The notes under the pieces are model-generated. The model saw only the letters and a program-made list of their open reading frames with translations. It did no database searches and was not told where the DNA came from. Below are positions 32,975 through 63,553 of a DNA stretch of 64,000 nt, piece after piece (position 1 is the stretch's first letter; every line of letters begins with the position of its first letter). The position numbers and the translations under genes are program-made. The stretch comes from Octopus vulgaris. Taxonomy: Eukaryota. Location of the stretch: assembly GCA_951406725.2 (NCBI GenBank), contig OX597825.1, positions 49,476,001 to 49,540,000 on the forward strand. The letters are read 5' to 3'.

Positions 32975-33330
32975 ATATATGGGTACGGAACATCATCAAC
33001 GGTGCGAATGTCATGAAATACATAAACAAAATGGAAAACAGGACAAGTTACAACAGAGAAAGGACCCTTCATAAGTTTTCGGCTGTCTATCTACTCCTCA
33101 TTTCGAGCATTCAACGACAATATGAAACATCAATGACAGTTTCTCCCATGAATTCAAAACTAAAATTTTGGATTTATGGAGGGTCAAAGTTGGGAACAAG
33201 AAAATGACAGCGAAGATAAAAGGAAACTGAGTGAAAACAAAAATGGGGCGTTAGACGAGAACGAGAGGAAAATAGTGAATGCTGGGAAAAACATTTCCTT
33301 TTGGAGGAAAGTTAGAAGGCAGAGAAAAAA
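32975..33330 (-). repeat. Interspersed repeat family A, purine-rich, with a permuted hammerhead-like motif (copy at 41115-41600)
   Basis: Shares cggctgtctatctactcctcatttcgagcattca...aattcaaaa(c/a)taaaattttggattt...gttagac(g/c)agaacgagaggaaaatagtgaatg with 41230-41470. Confidence 0.85.
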
Positions 33331-34999: not shown

Positions 35000-35020
35000 G
35001 TAGAACTTTTACTTTTTGTA

Positions 35021-38000
35021 ATGGCTTCTCTTAACCTTGGTTCTTTAAATGTGCGTGGTCTGAGTTCGAAGTGGAAGCAGGCTTGTTTCCTCGACGACCT
35101 CAGATCACATGATATACATGTGATGGTTGCTACAGAGACCAAGCTGGACAGGCTACAAACCTTGTCGCCTTTCCTGAATGGCTACGAGAAAATCATGTCT
35201 CCTGGCCAGACCGGAGGGCGAGGGGGTGTAGTGGTACTGATCCGTAAAGACTTGGCTCTGCAGACAAGTACAGTCTATGTGGACCCAGAAGGTGGGCTGG
35301 TCGTCCTTGATGTAACATACAGCAGTAAGGCCTTCAGGTTGATCGGACTCTATGCACCTTGTGCTAGAGGTTTCCAAACTGATTTTTATCGGCGCCTAGA
35401 GGGCTTTCTCGTGACGTCGAAGACTTTAGTGATATTAGGGGACTTTAATGCTATCGTTGACGTACACATCGATAGCGTTGGCTCGATCTATAGGAAAGTG
35501 AACTCACGTCTCGTGGATCTGCTTAAGCGGTTTCAGCTGGCAGATCGTTACAGACTTGACCATCCGAACGTCCCAGAGTGGACCTGGATGAGTGGTGACG
35601 GAAGGTTCAAGCCTTATCTAGACAGGATAGTGATAAGAACTAGAGATAAGTCTAGTTTTAGTCGTCCACAGCTCGTCCAGGTGCCCTATACTGATCATAG
35701 AATGGTCAAGTGTAGACTGGACATAGATAGCACACTTAAGATAGGAACCGGCTACTGGAAGCTGAACAAGTATATTTTGACTCGCGAGGCATACCGTAGC
35801 CGGATTAAGGAGTTAGTGCAGAGGGCGTTAACCGGAGCCGTGGTTAACAACCGGTGGTGGTTCGCCCTCAAAAGAGCCATTCGATTCGAGTCCATTAGAT
35901 TTAGTAAACAACTAAGACTAGATAGGGCTAGAATAGAAGGGCAACTAGTTAAGAACTTAGAGGAGGCGTTGAGGTTGGGCTCTGCATCTCACATTTTAGC
36001 GGCGAGAACGGCATTAGACCGTCACCTCAAAACCAAACATGAGGGATGTAGAGTCCGGGCTAAAGTACGAGCATTGGGCCGTGAGGGAATTAATGTTGCC
36101 GGATAGAAACAGAGCGTGGCAACGATGCCACAATTGGGTCTCTTGTTGATGAAAACGGATGCACGGTCAAGAAGCGGGACGAGATGTGTGACGCACTTCA
36201 CAAGCACTTCGCCGAGTTGTTCGGGAGGTGCGGGACGCTGGATCATGATGAGGCCCTTAGGGACTTCCTGTCTGGTGGCCTGCGTCTCACGATACGAGAG
36301 GCTGAGTGCTGTGAAGGGCCAATCACGGCCGAGGAAGTAATCGAGGTGTGCCCCGGGGAGAAGTCGCCGGGTCTCGATGGTTTGCCCTATGAATTTTATA
36401 AAAGTATGCCAGACTTGTTCGGGCACCTGCTGGCTAGCGTCTACGGCAACTGGCAGCAGAATGGGAGAATTCCCAAGTCTGCGAGCCGGGGGGTAGTGAC
36501 GCTGATCAGGAAGGACCCGAGCAAAGGGGACGAGATAGGGAACTTCAGGCCCATAACTCTGTTGAACACAGAGTTAAAGATTCTGGCCAAGGTGCTAGCA
36601 AAAAGGTTGGCGCGGGTCGTGGACAAACTTGTCGGGGAAGCGCAAACGTGCGCTATCCCTGGCAGAACGATCCACGATAATTTCCACCTTATACGCTACT
36701 CCTTAGAGAGGGTGGGGAAGCTTTCTGGCACAGGTGAGCACTGGTACATTTAGACCAGTCCAAAGCATTTGATAGGGTCGACCATCAGTACTTGGTGGCG
36801 GTCCTCGGAGAGGCTGGCCTAGGCCCGACCTTTCGAGATTGGATCGCTGCTTTGTATAGCCTCATCGAGTCTGTAGTCAAAGTGAACGGTTTCTTTTCGA
36901 AGCCGTTCAGGATCGAGCGTTCAGTTCGTCAAGGGTGTCCCCTGTCCTCGCTCCTATACGTATTGGCCCTTGACCCTTTGCTGCGGAAGTTGGAGGCACT
37001 AGGGTGCGCGCCGCATGATCTATGGTGTGGAAGAGGAGCTACGGCGTATGCGGATGACACCTCCACCATCGTGGCAGACGAAGGCCAGCTTCCAGTGGTG
37101 GAAGAGGCAATCAAAAGCTACGAGGCGGTGGCAGGAGCAAAGGTTAACAAGGACAAGTCGGTCGGTCGGTTTGCAACTCGGCACCTGGAGGGGCAAGCCG
37201 ATGCCGTCCAATGCCGTAGAGCGTTGGACGGAAGTTCCTCTTCAGCTGCTCGGAGTCTGGTTCGGGCCAGACCTCCAGATTGAGAAAAATTGGAGTGAGG
37301 TGGCCAACAAGGTGACCGCTCTAACCCAGACCTGGTCTGGGCGGGCGTTATCCCTGCTAGGGAAGGCGGAGGTGGTTGAGATGTTTATAGCATCAGTAAT
37401 CACCTACCGTCTGACCGTGATGACTTGCCCCGATTTGTGGCTGAACAAGTTGGAGAGAATCCTTTTCCGCTTTTTGTGGAAAGGAGGAAAGCCACTTGTA
37501 AAGCGCTCTGTCTGCTGCCAGAAACCGCTAAAGGGTGGGCTAGGGATGCCTTGGCTGAGGATGCAAAAACTCGCGTTAAGTTTAAGGCACCTCTGGCTTT
37601 ACCTGGATGGAGAGCAGGTGTGGTCACCGCACGTCCGGTTCTACCATCCCCAGTTAACATCCCTAACGGACATCGGTGCATGGATCAAGCGGAGACCTAA
37701 ACTGGTTGAATGGCATTTGGAATGCCGTCAGGCGCCCCAGCTACACTCTCGGGCGGGCAACAGGAGTTCCACCACGGATTTCAATAGCGGGTTAGCGGAG
37801 GTTAAGTCCGAAGGCGCCTTGGGGTAGACCCTGGGCTACGATGAAAATCAGTTGGTCAACCTGTTCCGGAGGACGTTCGGGCCGGGTATCTGGATACTTA
37901 CCAGAAATCCCTGGCCTGGCAGTGTTTCCGTGCGGCTTTCCTGTTCGCGACAAGCTGTCAAGGCTCGAAAGTGCCGGCGACATGCCCGCGATGTGAGCGG

Positions 38001-41114: not shown

Positions 41115-41600
41115 ATTGGTACAGGACGTCACCAACTTTGTAAACAACATAATGTACTGAAACAAATGATTTTAATACGCAAACAAGGGAAAGATCGAAA
41201 ACAAGATAAATAACACGGAGGACGACACTTCATCAGTTGTCGGCTGTCTATCTACTCCTCATTTCGAGCATTCAGCGAGAATATGAAATTTCAATGACAG
41301 ATACTCCCATAAATTCAAAAATAAAATTTTGGATTTTTGGAGAGTCAAAGATGGAAACATAAACAGGACAGAAGAGAAATACAAGGAAACTGGACGAAAA
41401 CGAAGATGAAGTATCGTTAGACCAGAACGAGAGGAAAATAGTGAATGTTAGGAGAAATATTCTCTTTGAAAAACAAAAAAGATAGAAGAGGGAGATAGAA
41501 GACGTCCAATCCTTAGAACGTCGTGCAGGAAAAGAAAGAAGTTCATGGGAGGAAAAGAAAGATGGGCGATGGTCACTTGTGAGCAACGAGGGAGAGAGAA
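41115..41600 (-). repeat. Interspersed repeat family A, second copy
   Basis: Homologous to 32975-33330 and adjacent to a (TA)n(TG)n tract. Confidence 0.85.
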
Positions 41601-46568: not shown

Positions 46569-46606
46569 TTACATATATATATACATATATATATAAATAA
46601 AATATA

Positions 46607-47512
46607 TGCATACATACATACATATATGTACGTACCTACATCTACATGTATATATACATGCATATATAAATATATATACGTGAGTACAGGACACCACAAA
46701 TAGACGTAGAACTCAACGAGAAACGAAAACGTAAAAACAAACATGGAAACGGACTTTTTTTTAACAACGAAAAAACAGAGTACAAGACAAACAACACAAG
46801 GAAAATTCCCCTTCATCAGCTGTCCCTAGTTCAACTCCATGCGTGTTTCGAAGGTAAGGACAGAACACGACTCGTCTAACTAGCCCTTCCTGCGAAAGAA
46901 TTAAATAAAATTCCTTTGCAGAGGGGTAAAAACAAAGAAAGAAAAAAGTGTGACAAAAACAGGACGTAAAAACAATACAAATAAAAATACAAGTAAAAGA
47001 AACAAGTACAAAATAAAAATACAAATACAAAAAAATACAGTACAAGAAATAAAAACAAATATGGAAACAAACAATGAGGGCCTTTTTTAGCCTAGACGAG
47101 GAAAAATTCAAGAGCGCAGGAAAAAAGCGTGTTCACTTGTAGGAGGCCGCCAGCGAAAGGAAGTTGGTCGACCCGGCTGTGAGAGAGATGAGGAGGAGTG
47201 AGAGAGAGAAAGATAGAGAGGAAAGGAAACCAGAAAAGGTGAAAAATAAGAAGGAGAGAGACAGGCAAAGAGGAAGACAGATAGGAAGGGAGGGAAGATC
47301 AAGCAAAGGGTTATAGAGTTTCGCGTCATAATTATATATAAAAAGTTACTTGGAGAACAGAAAGGAAACGAAACGACGCGAGGGCGCTCCGTCATGCAAT
47401 TTAATAAATAAAATACCTGCTTACATACATACATATATGTACGTACCTACATCTACATGTATATATACATGCATATATAAATATGTATACGTGAGTACAG
47501 GACACAACAAAT
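46607..47512 (-). mobile_element. Repeat family B with ~90-bp direct terminal repeats and a permuted hammerhead-like motif
   Basis: tacatacatatatgtacgtacctacatctacatgtatatatacatgcatatataaatat(a/g)tatacgtgagtacaggacac occurs at ~46611-46700 and ~47422-47512. The interior is non-coding and purine-rich. Confidence 0.75.
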
Positions 47513-49452
47513 CTAGAGTAGAAGTCATCTGCGTATTTGTGTATTGCCATTTTATTATTGCATGTGAATAGTTCAATATTTCGATATCATTTGTAATTAT
47601 ATTTATTTTATTTATAATATCTTAATTTCATAAATAATTTGAATATATAAGTTTATAATATTAACCGAACTGATCTCCCATTTATCACATTACAGTTTCT
47701 GGATGGATACAATTACCAGTTTCCAGAGATTGTATCCCTCATTATAAATATATAGTCTGGCACAGAAATACCAATTCTCCAGCTACAGATATCTAATGGA
47801 TTAAATATCATTTAGAACAAACTCCTTCGACTGTTTTAATAGGTATCTAGTGCAGACATCAACATTTATAAATCGATAAATCGACATTTATAAACCCGGA
47901 TACAATATTTCATTTAATGTTATCAAATATCCTTACACTATCTGTTAATTAATGTGTCATATTTCTCCCCCTTCTGTGTGATATGGTTGACATATGCTGG
48001 CTCTCTTTAATAGACTAGCATTATGACTGTAATAGAGAGCTTAGTATTTTCTTAGTGTACACTTGTAAGCCACGCAGAATTATTGAATTGAAGGTTATGG
48101 CAAATAGCCTCTTTTTCATGCCAGGCTAAACGGCAATAACAACGTTATATAACAAGGAATGTTATTTTCATTAAGACAATGCATAGTTAATAGAGCTACA
48201 TTTTACAGTGTAAGTTTCCTGTGGCATCATTGCTCTCTTTCGTTTCACTCTAAACGCTCAAAGTAAAAACAGCCATTTCTAGCCCCTTTTTGGTAACTTC
48301 ACACATTCTAATCTAAAGATTACACGTGTGGGTCATTAGCAAAATATATGTTTCTTGTTGTGTTTCAAACACAACTTTAATTCATGTATAGGCATGTATA
48401 ACATGTATCGAGCTCAGCTGGAACAATATATTAATATAGCTTGAACGTGTGTATTACAGTATTAAGAATGAGAACATATATCCCTTTGGAACTCTCTTAA
48501 GTATCGATATCAAGTGTGTTAACGTAGGAGGAAAGCCACACAACATATTGACTACTCGATTTGCCTTTCCATGTTTGTTAGTACACCCACATTGCATTCA
48601 GTTACTAAAATATTTAATTTCTGTAATTTTGTTATCACCAATGTTTATCAAGTGTTTACAATTACAGAATAAATTATTTTAAAACTATTCCAGCAATTAA
48701 GGAGTTACTTATGACAGTTAAACATAATGCACTAAATGCTTTCTTTTTTATCTCATAACGTACTAAATTATTCAGGATATGAAGCTAATTTACTATCCTA
48801 TCAATTAGTTATCCTGTACATTACTCGATACAGTTAAAATAGGAAATGGAAAAGCTATGAATTACTGAGAATTTAAATTTAACTTGATTAGATATCTTCA
48901 ATATATCTTAGAAGGTGTTGAATTATCAGTATTCAAGAATTGCTACTTTGGATATCGCTAAGTTGTATAATTGAAATTGGAGTTTGTAGCAGCAACTTCA
49001 AAGAAGATAAAAGAAAATGAAGAAAATTTCTGAATGATAAGCACATTTCATGTTGACAAAAATGTCAAATTGCAATGTAAAATAGAAAAGCACCAAAATT
49101 CTCAAATATTAAAAGTGAAGAATGTTTTTTATAGTCATATAAGTAATGACAAACCTTCGAACATTTAACATATAAACGGGCTTTAAAAGTTCTCTCACTG
49201 TATTCGTATGACATTAACACGCATGAAACTTTAAGTACTATGCAGGAAATTAAACATGTATAACAGAATCATTTATAATGTGTATGATTTCGTTGCGATA
49301 TCCGTAATTACGGAGAGATAGGTGCAGTAACACACATCTTGCAATTTGAAACGTAACATCAAATGATAAACTTACGTTGATGAAATATTAGATGCCCTAC
49401 TTCAAACATATTAGGGAATATACAGGACGACAGATAAATACATTCCTCTTAA

Positions 49453-53550: not shown

Positions 53551-54532
<982 letters not shown>

Positions 54533-56499: not shown

Positions 56500-57200
56500 G
56501 TATGTATGTGTGTGCCCCAACCTACAACAAGGCTCGGGATTCCTACTCGAACAAGGAGACAGGTTCACAATTAAAACCACTGGTGCTTCCAAGAATCTAA
56601 TTTATGTTATAACTTGCTCAGGTTGTGGTCATAACTACATAGGACAAACAAATGTGACACTGAGATGAAGAACCACACTGCATAAGGAACAGACACGGTT
56701 CCGGCAATACAGACAGATTCATCTGAGTGAACACATAGAGGGATATACAGGTAGTAACCAAACTTCACAGATTTCCCCATCTACCAGTACAAAGAAACGA
56801 TTTCTATACAAGAATGCTTAAATAATGAAAATTTGCCCATCGAGAAATATAGAACGTGTCTAAATATGAACGCATAACTAACTTTGATCTCAGTATATAT
56901 TTTAATTCATAATCACATACCCATTACTATACGTATTTTATCTCAGTACTTAATCTTTGAGCTTTGTATATATTTATCCCCACACCGAGAGATGAAAACT
57001 TACCTCGCTTGTCCCCAATAACAAGATCACCAGTTACCTCTCCTTAGATTTTTTTTCTTTTTGAATTATTAATAAAAAGTTCTCCACACACAGCATGCAC
57101 TAAATTTTTCTTAATAAAATACGAATTTACAATAATTTCAATGTCATCATTAGCGAAGCAAAACAGGTCGACAAACATAATATAAAATATATTTTAAAAT
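56500..57200 (+). mobile_element. PLE 3' fragment with a GIY-YIG endonuclease (Neptune-like) and a decayed hammerhead
   Basis: SKNLIYVITCSGCGHNYIGQTNVTLR*RTTLH...LSEHI, then tgtc-atcatta-gc-gaa-gc-aaaac-ag-GTC-gaca at 57142-57173. Confidence 0.8.
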
Positions 57201-60709: not shown

Positions 60710-60913
60710 TTATAGTTAAAAAAAACAAACAAATTTCCACACGAAAACACGTGATTTCTGCCCCTGGCATGTAGCTTCAACCGTGTTTTCTGACGTGAAT
60801 TTGCTACCCGGGTATCGGTTAACCGAATTGTCCATACTAGGATAATTCATTCACCTACTTAAATACTCTTATACAGTCTCCTTGAGATCCTGCTATCTTA
60901 ACCGATAACGCAA

Positions 60914-63553
60914 ATGGAGTTGTTCGACATTAACGCATCCCTTAAGGACATACCAATACCACCGAAAGAAACCTTCCTTAAGGAAATTGTGAACAAAACT
61001 AATGCATTTATCATCCGCATCAGATGGCTCGCCTTCTTCCATGATAATGAGGACATAAAACGGAACAGTAACGACGTCTCTTTTGAATATAAAAAACTAT
61101 TTAGGTCGAGAGGAACCCATCCACCTAATCCCACACTGAAGAAATTTGAAAATGATCTGTGGGACATCGTAAGGAACAATAAATTTCGTAAATCACCCCT
61201 TAGGAATAAACACCTCAAATACCTCGATAAAGTCGCCAGAGATATAAACAGATTAGACGCTATCCTGGTCCAATCGGATAAAACCGGGGACATATATAAG
61301 CTTGCAAAGGATCATTATTTAGAAATGCTCAAAAAAGAAATACATAAGAATTACAGGACAACAAATAGGAATACACTCAGACAGGCCAACTTAGAAATTA
61401 AGAAAATCATGGAAACGTATGGATTACAAATGAAAACACAACCGCTGAAACCCAGACAACCGAGATTCATCGTTAAGGACCATAAACAGAACTTTCATAC
61501 CAACCCGGCATTAAGGCTCATATGCCAATCTAGTTCCGACATCGGTACCCTTAGTAAGTACATTTTAGATAAATACATACCTATATTAATCAATAAGTTA
61601 AAACTCAGCTTATGGTGTAACTCCACTCAAGTCGTAGAGTGGTTTACTTCTATTACTAATAAGGACAACACAAAATTTATACAATTCGATATATCTAGTT
61701 TCTACCCTTCGATCAACCCTAGTGTACTCAATAAGGCCCTATGGCACGCACATAATAAGAGAGGCCTCTCCAGGGAGGAAATTAATGTGATATTAGCAGC
61801 TAGAAATTCTTTCATACAGTTCGATAATAAGTTGTGGGTCCGCAGAGATACCCCCAACGCATTCGATGTGCTAATGGGAAGCACAGACAGCGCCCAGATA
61901 GCCGATTTGGTCGGAATTTATATTCTCTATGAATTGGCCGACCAATTCCCAGACCTCTGTGGCGGTCTGTATCGAGACGATTGTCTACTTTACCTCCAGA
62001 ATGCTCCGAACAATAGAATACAGAAGATTAAGAAGAGATTAGCTAAATTTTTTAGGAGAATGGACTTAAGCATAGTTTTTGACGATGAATTATCTAAAGC
62101 CAACTTCTTAGACGTTACCCTAAATCTGCAGAATAATTCATACTTCCATTATAATAAACCTTCTACTAATCTTAAATATATCAGCATTTTCAGTAACCAT
62201 GCCAAAACTATTACCGATAATTTAGTTAAAAATATTTCTTTAAGACTGTCAAAAGTATCTGCTAATGGCGACATCTTTAACCAGAAAGCGGAATTTTATA
62301 ACGCCGCCTTGTCAAAAGCCGGTTATAGAGATAATGTATCATACAACGACCTGGCCCATTCTAAACCAATATATGCTTCTCAGGATAAGAAAACTAATAA
62401 CAATAGAAATAGTGAGAATAATGATTTCAGCTCTAACAACGTCAGCACCAATGTACTTAAGAAAAATAATTTACGGACAAGGGGAGGCAATCGACAACCA
62501 ACCCCAATTTTCCAGCACAGAAATATTCCCTTTAATGTAACTAGTAACGCTTTCAGCAATTCTAAGTCTACAAAAAATTATATCTGGTTTGTTATACCTT
62601 TCGGAAAACAAATCAAGTCAAACCTTCCTTTACAGTTCCGTGAAGCTGTAGCTAGGAACTTTCCCAGGAATTCTAGGTATCACTCTACTATCAATTCGCA
62701 TAAGGTAAGGATTGCATTCTCTAACACTAGAAATCTTTCGCAAATTATTGCCTCCGATAATAACAAGCTGCTCAACAAGGATTCTTCACCCGGGTGTTAC
62801 GACACTATTCTTATCAATTCCAACCAAACATACAATAATAATAATAGAAATAGTATTGATAATAGCAACATTCGTAACAGCGTTGGTATTAACAATGGTA
62901 GTATTAATAATAATACTAGCTGGATTAATAACAGTGGTAGTGTTGATGGTAACAACGACAGCATTTCTAATAACAGTGGTAGTGTTGATGATAACAACGA
63001 CAGCATTTCTATAGTCAGGGATATTGCCGGCGATAGTACAATTAATAATAATAACAATAATAGAACTAGTATAGTGGTCAATGCTAGCAATAATATTAAC
63101 AGCAATCATAACAATAAAAACTCCGTCTTAGTCTCGGAGGTAAACCGTTACAGATTAAAGTTCTTGTCCAGTAATTCCAAAATTAGAAATTCTATTTACC
63201 AGTGTAAAATTTCTTCCGGTACCGGTGTCTTCTTCTATATTGGGGCGACTACTTCTAAATTGTCCCAGAGAATTTCCAATCATTATTCAACTTTCCGAGA
63301 TAAGAGAAAACAATAGAGTACAGGACTAAGTAAATTAGTTTGGCGTCTTAAGGACAGCAATATAACTTTCAAGCTGGATTGGTCCATATTGTCCGTATCC
63401 TTTCCTTTTGATAAGGGCAGGAAATATTGTGGCGTCTGTAATTCCGAGCTCTTCTATATTCTTTTCGCCAAATTCCCCTTGGTAAACACAATAATAGAAA
63501 AATCCTATAAGTGCATGCACTGGCAGAAGCACACTTTCCACTCATATGAATGA
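60914..63553 (+). CDS. Penelope-like element (Naiad-type) RT + GIY-YIG polyprotein; 800-aa ORF, a single in-frame TAG (63314-63316), then 78 more codons
   Basis: RT-region motifs KDIPIP, IRWLAFF, SDKTG, KDHKQNF, FDISSFYPSI, FDVLMGSTDSAQIADLVG, GLYRDD, NFLDVTL. Endonuclease IYQC..YIGAT..RISNH, and after the TAG: TGLSKLVWRLK..W.I..CGVCNSE..VN..CMH. Confidence 0.92.

Follow-up and report, generated by a model that had tools for sequence, protein, structure and literature searches.

The window, the whole 64,000-nt stretch of Octopus vulgaris DNA analysed here (assembly GCA_951406725.2, contig OX597825.1, positions 49,476,001 to 49,540,000), carries one copy of a repeat family B and two copies of a family A (Table 1). 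The family B unit is non-coding and bears a 123-nt terminal repeat, which bears out the original prediction of a direct-repeat-bounded, non-autonomous retroelement. Copies of family B are truncated to varying extents at the 5′ end, occur also as inverted or partial tandem copies, may carry a tail and are flanked by (TA)n, which is the insertion pattern of Penelope-like elements (PLEs). These traits, with (TA)n as the target, are given as PLE features in the parts of Craig et al. 2021 (PMC8557442) considered here, and family B shares them with the Naiad clade. Families A and B had been described as unrelated, but they align, and their 3′ ends are ~72-75% identical. The window also holds inverted and direct repeats at 53551-54113 that contain the core of a conventional minimal type I hammerhead (CTGAAGA at 53889, minus strand), as is typical of a Penelope pseudo-LTR tangle; a GC-rich broken LINE at 35000-37827 (+), with an endonuclease/exonuclease/phosphatase domain and RVT_1 pieces in three frames; an 804-aa open frame at 60902-63316 (+) with no Pfam match; a fragment of a C-terminal-endonuclease PLE protein at 56510-56755 (52% identity); and a fragment of a reverse transcriptase (RT) at 1465-1929.

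Table 1. Repeat elements in the window and the predicted parts of the family B motif, in 5′ to 3′ order of the minus strand for the motif.
Feature	Position	Strand	Basis or remark
Predicted stem II 5′ strand, G10.1 first, supplied from upstream	46885..46889	-	copy comparison
P0 5′ strand	46874..46883	-	10 bp in most copies, one private mismatch here
Kink loop 5′ side, GA of k-turn-like loop	46870..46873	-	
Stem III strand (46869-46866), U16.1 (46865) and H17 = U (46864)	46864..46869	-	
Predicted cut	between 46864 and 46863	-	descriptor; 5′-end pile-up
Stem I strand (46863-46858) and 3-nt linker to stem II	46855..46863	-	
Stem II 3′ strand (46854-46850), GAAA (46849-46846), stem III partner (46845-46842)	46842..46854	-	
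Kink loop 3′ side: C, 3-nt bulge, GA	46836..46841	-	bulge 2 nt in about half of family B
P0 3′ strand, directly joined to stem I	46826..46835	-	
Stem I partner (46825-46820) and CUGAUGA core (46819-46813)	46813..46825	-	
Extra A and 4 G: weak alternative stem II strand	46808..46812	-	ordinary type-SGC register
Family B non-coding Penelope-like element	46593..47527	-	~811-nt unit plus partial head-to-tail duplication, ends in (TA)n
Terminal direct repeat, 5′ copy, pseudo-LTR-like	47404..47527	-	92% identical to 3′ copy
Terminal direct repeat, 3′ copy	46593..46715	-	
Family A copy, same architecture	41225..41306	-	decayed stem I
Second family A copy	33064..33145	-	mutated core

The original prediction placed a permuted, pseudoknotted hammerhead in the family B element. 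Its letters lie where they had been placed on the minus strand, and the motif starts at 46889, 25 nt upstream of the start first assigned. Read with a descriptor, the blocks follow the order Site-GAAA-CUGAUGA, and the predicted chain runs II - P0 - III′ - UH - I - II′ - GAAA - III - P0′ - I′ - CUGAUGA. The stem I that had been proposed was confirmed. Stem III differs from the one first drawn: the 5 nt just upstream of the original start pair with the bases after GAA, so that the U-H site comes to lie directly before stem I. Since the strand after GAAA pairs upstream of the stretch first considered, the cut is predicted at 46864/46863. When copies were compared, the strand before stem III paired with the strand just before stem I to form a further helix, P0 (5-10 bp), which a GA-rich internal loop joins to stem III, while stem II was formed by the 5-6 bases before GAAA and a G-starting strand 0-2 nt before P0. 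The G10.1 strand of stem II is located 5′ of all other parts and not after CUGAUGA, and therefore the chain is predicted to be open between A9 and G10.1. In such a fold, the catalytic junction would be connected to a distal three-way junction by stem I, by stem II and by a bent arm made of stem III, kink and P0, giving a closed cage. A decayed CUGAUGA ahead of the upstream stem II strand was sought by eye without success; family C has a look-alike with a single mismatch, which falls at an invariant position. The same layout had been claimed for family A, and it was found in both window copies of that family.

The window had no Rfam match at gathering score, in agreement with the claim that existing models do not cover the motif, and no hammerhead was among the 150 listed of 177 weak matches in 6 loci. 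The nested junction and the orders CGS, GSC and SCG of Rfam types I-III were absent, the order here being S-G-C. Nested folding gave no significant z-score, the pseudoknots lying outside such a model, and the minimum-energy nested fold of this copy is a different fold. HDV-like, pistol and twister layouts were considered by their consensus and dropped because the full hammerhead core fits.

In the layout first drawn, the cut falls after the GTT of the loop, and stem II consists of CCUUC and the GAAGG that contains G8 and A9. All five pairs of this register form in the B, B1, B2 and F majorities, but no more than 3/5 in A and 2/5 in E, and the conserved stem II partner is the identical GAAGG upstream. 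A helix with the core GAAGG would be inactive because it uses up the catalytic G8 and A9, and it leaves no stem III. The loop GTT lies in P0′ and is no constant triplet (of the 57 scored copies, 30 have GTC and 25 have GTT). With these points against it, this layout is very improbable. The GGAGU(A/U)GA element is indeed shared by A and B, as had been stated, although here it makes up the kink strand and the beginning of P0′. Family B carries an exact duplicate of the upstream stem II strand in the five bases that begin with G8 (window 46808-46814); an equally stable inactive fold could form with this duplicate, which may possibly provide an off-state after departure of the 5′ product.

Copies were sought in the same assembly (2.8 Gb). 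The exact 19-nt B motif had 990 genome matches, the exact A motif 1377 and the exact motif of a third family, C, 456, each against 0 in the reversed control, and the general site-GAAA-CUGAUGA pattern was enriched 8-fold (24,657 overlapping matches vs 3,036 in the reversed control). In the window, the block-order pattern matched once, compared to none in 150 dinucleotide-shuffled windows, an enrichment over shuffled sequence that had been anticipated. Within 0.92 Mb of fetched loci, selected for carrying the motif, the four-helix descriptor found 70 distinct sites; 9.2 Mb of shuffled sequence gave none. A metagenome scan gave 1 weak match among at least 118 loci, an uninformative result. At first look there were 2741 family B candidates, the best 40 at 95-100% identity. 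When 60 B copies were taken in genome order, GAAA was kept in 57, the U-H site was present in 49 of these 57, and H17 was U in 51/57. A U at H17 makes a slower cleavage triplet.

We next consider covariation, which had been predicted between families A and B. In an alignment of 38 copies from six related subfamilies, retrieved and picked for an intact core, the core letters (U16.1, C11.1, GAAA, CUGA-GA) were invariant in 38/38. Stems II (upstream), III and I had 94.9% of their cells paired, compared to 28-46% in slid controls, and 11 of their 15 pairs showed changes on both sides, which supports the predicted covariation; for the upstream stem II strand this held for 3/5 pairs. P0 was left out of this count because MAFFT misaligned it between A and B, and its support comes from per-copy parsing. 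A wider set of 255 contexts (40 regions from the first 100 general-pattern matches, plus earlier loci) fell into 13 clusters and 14 singletons, with clusters x8 and x12 and most singletons not fitting the layout. Among the 131 contexts with intact stems I and III, an upstream G-starting stem II of at least 4 bp was found in 111, and the upstream stem II was more stable than the downstream one in 114. In representatives of 10 subfamilies, which are not fully independent, the upstream helix had 5-6 bp in 10/10 (dG -3.8 to -11.6; shuffle p = 0.003-0.095 each), and the downstream helix had a dG of -1.5 or worse. Comparison of copies establishes the four predicted helices and their block order, and about ten subfamilies of the octopus genome share the layout while differing by compensatory changes. 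Two repeat clusters (L122, L123 and L157; L141 and L155) have the GAAA...CTGATGA spacing and do not fit the layout; one of them sits within a LINE-like frame.

The order Site-GAAA-CUGAUGA is that of type SGC, a non-circularly permuted hammerhead for which in vitro cleavage was shown (Eckert et al. 2023, PMC10085705, as far as considered here). Families A and B might be ordinary type-SGC hammerheads, with stem II formed after CUGAUGA and an extra A, and with the upstream strand as a competitor or switch. In both families, this downstream register, mostly of G.U pairs, is 96% paired, with an invariant G93 and one both-side change, and an extra nucleotide at this place is also seen in published SGC ribozymes (PMC10085705) and some PLE hammerheads (PMC4209133), in the examples considered. 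The downstream helix is, however, weaker (dG 0 to -1.5, compared to -4.6 to -6.5 upstream), its register fails in C, D, E and J, where pairing is absent from D and E, and it fails by eye in the published Naiad tails consulted; the upstream strand shows the both-side changes given above. An ordinary SGC hammerhead in A and B is therefore improbable, and the upstream stem II remains our preferred reading.

In this preferred layout, the GA-rich loop reads as a standard k-turn in only 5/10 subfamily majorities, in both orientations. The standard k-turn consists of a 3-nt bulge, then tandem G.A/A.G pairs and a closing pair (PMC5061560, relevant part), and in family B the bulge had 3 nt in 28 copies vs 2 nt in 27. 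In A, B and F, the GA tandem is followed by a Watson-Crick pair, and a k-turn with such a pair would not fold in ions alone according to the part of PMC4382518 considered. We speculate that the k-turn may make ribozyme activity protein-dependent. Outside octopus, the kink is a plain bulge or a side hairpin, as read by eye in the published tails consulted.

If the motif cleaves, 5′ ends of element copies may carry a trace of it. The predicted cut site was fixed before the 5′-end test, and 91 family B copies were taken in genome order, picked by a motif 3′ of the cut. In windows of 15 nt on either side of the cut, the 3′ window held 17 of their 5′ ends and the 5′ window 3 (p = 0.0013). In total, 27/91 copies ended at or 3′ of the predicted cut, with a peak 5-11 nt past it, compared to 4 in the next 31 nt (p = 0.002), and 64/91 extended past the site. 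Family A (70 copies) had a peak in the same place (11 vs 4, p = 0.059), which reached p = 0.006 only when TA microhomology was allowed, and its overall 5′-end rate was not raised (p = 0.40); the family A pile-up is only suggestive. We take the pile-up to mean that, in a minority of events, the RNA that was reverse-transcribed had been cleaved. The ribozyme would cut head-to-tail or read-through transcripts at the predicted site, and some of the RNAs that serve as templates for reverse transcription would be 3′ products, from which such a pile-up would result. About 20 bp (II, P0 and III) would clamp both products, and, more speculatively, this clamp could favour re-ligation or circularisation of unit-length RNA.

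Stalling of RT in a stable structure could also make the pile-up. More broadly, the motif might be a hammerhead-derived element that cleaves barely or not at all and that binds an element protein or stalls the RT. The 64 copies that run through the predicted cut fit this, as do PLE hammerheads, which cleave poorly in vitro in the reports considered (PMC4209133, PMC11167929); in an anole PLE, the hammerhead required protein in order to cleave, and insertion in vitro did not depend on cleavage (PMC11167929, same part). But the edge of the pile-up is sharp at the predicted cut and not at the 3′ edge of the structure, which an RT meets first, and families with unrelated stems have all retained the catalytic letters and the U-H site, from ctenophore to octopus in the published tails consulted. 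We therefore regard a non-cleaving element as unlikely, and it is probable that the motif is a self-cleaving hammerhead with its chain opened between A9 and G10.1, likely the 3′-end ribozyme of Naiad-type PLEs.

The link to Naiads comes from family C, whose motif matches the 3′ end of the published Naiad_Ovul consensus (PMC8557442, part of the supplement). On the strand that carries the family C motif, a C-terminal PLE-type RT lies ~0.9 kb upstream of it, as in the Naiad clade, and the motif also lies downstream of 5/14 further RT copies; the RT is at the C-terminal end of the ORF with the 3′ UTR directly after it. The Naiad clade is further marked by an N-terminal GIY-YIG and a CxC motif, and the family C copies fetched were 5′-truncated. 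Judged by sequence, family C is the octopus Naiad of Craig et al. (PMC8557442, as far as consulted). Naiads were reported there without canonical hammerheads, with 8 'half cores' marked, including the 'HHR_half_core' of Naiad_Ovul; these were not folded in the parts of that paper considered. By eye, at least 10 Naiad consensus tails in the supplement of PMC8557442, from ctenophore to octopus, fit this layout: one from a ctenophore (2-bp stem I), one from a hydrozoan, three near-identical ones from corals (one with mismatches), two near-identical octopus records, two records in part 12 and one in part 19. This survey of the supplement covered 55/62 CTGATGA, 15/23 CTGACGA and 15/25 CTGAGGA places, with CTGAAGA left out, and several tails in parts 17-19, 25 and 26 were not parsable by eye. 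The octopus motif is likely the 'missing' ribozyme of Naiad retroelements, its tail present in about a thousand copies by the sequence matches.

Unlike the Naiad clade, families A and B are non-coding; they would be Naiad-type on three features only: the shared ribozyme, its position and the T-rich tail. The family B unit would be mobilised in trans by a Penelope-like RT/endonuclease. A descriptor scan of 30 GIY-YIG loci, of which 29 are C-terminal-endonuclease PLEs and one is apparently a nuclease gene of the cell, found no motif of their own that would mark an autonomous partner of A and B. The motif was likewise absent downstream of six intact PLE copies of 713-782 aa, and no similarity was found between A or B and either family C or the 3′ UTR of an intact 753-782 aa PLE. 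An RT adjoining the B copy at L186 was rejected as the partner, as the TA-rich sequence between them led us to take it as a separate insertion. Intact PLE families with 753-782 aa frames and many near-identical copies were seen at L462-L467, L067 and L072, and the L462-type 3′ UTR has a minimal hammerhead-like fold with a degenerate core.

Compared with known hammerheads, the motif shares with SGC (HRIMA-1) and CSG the cyclic block order, all core letters, the short stem I-II linker and a further helix, here P0, that connects stems I and II at their distal ends (PMC10085705, relevant sections). It would be, by its inferred geometry, a circular permutation of the SGC/CSG architecture, with P0 as the 'stem I-II interaction' helix. 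It differs in that the G10.1 strand is upstream and P0 is joined to stem III on both strands via a kink; compared to SGC, the P0 partner follows the upstream stem II strand and precedes stem III, instead of lying 3′ of stem II at the motif's 3′ end. In the scheme of Eckert et al., as given in the sections considered, CUGAnGA is assumed to be contiguous with its own stem II strand, and their descriptor (CUGAUGAG or CUGAUGAUG; linker of at most 15 nt) is unable to match family B. PLE pseudo-LTR hammerheads and non-LTR retrozymes are alike in having a 3′-end hammerhead in a tandem-prone, non-coding PLE-type unit, but they belong to type I and often form dimers with a vestigial stem III (PMC4209133; bioRxiv 10.64898/2026.07.22.740005; parts of both), whereas the octopus motif is a monomer that has two pseudoknots and a complete stem III. 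In the pistol-like pseudoknot hammerhead of Zhan et al. 2024 (PMC11300833, relevant part), helix II likewise comes partly from an upstream-strand pseudoknot, but A9 runs directly into G10.1 and the blocks stand in the standard order, so it gives no precedent for the core opening.

The motif had been proposed as an undescribed variant. Non-circularly permuted hammerheads as such have been known since 2023 (PMC10085705, parts considered); the predicted opening of the chain within the core, the kink in the closed arm and the presence of such a motif in Naiad elements of animals appear to be new. A literature search, with subscription journals outside its scope, found no description of a core-opened wiring or of permuted hammerheads in Naiads, including in the parts of bioRxiv 10.64898/2026.07.22.740005 and PMC13725137 consulted. 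On balance, we favour the wider reading that this is a seventh natural hammerhead wiring: a closed cage opened in the core that would be self-cleaving in animals, conserved in Naiads from ctenophores and corals to octopus, present in thousands of copies per genome, marked by a 5′-end cleavage footprint and, with the octopus k-turn, maybe protein-dependent. If so, the view of the hammerhead as three indivisible blocks in six orders would fall, and the apparent absence of hammerheads from the most abundant Penelope-like clade of many invertebrates would be explained. Type SGC had been found only in metatranscriptomes and CSG only in metagenomes, with none from genomes of known organisms in the sections of PMC10085705 considered, and these would be the first non-circularly permuted ribozymes placed in animal genomes within the literature searched. 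The 5′-end footprint would offer a genomic handle on the in vivo role of PLE hammerheads, and an 80-nt construct makes the split-core prediction testable by one in vitro transcription.

At least 6 further Naiad tails, mostly nematode (PMC8557442 supplement, parts 13-16, as far as surveyed), read by eye as a complete type-CSG hammerhead with the same extra helix; type CSG has been published from only two metagenomic examples (PMC10085705, sections considered).
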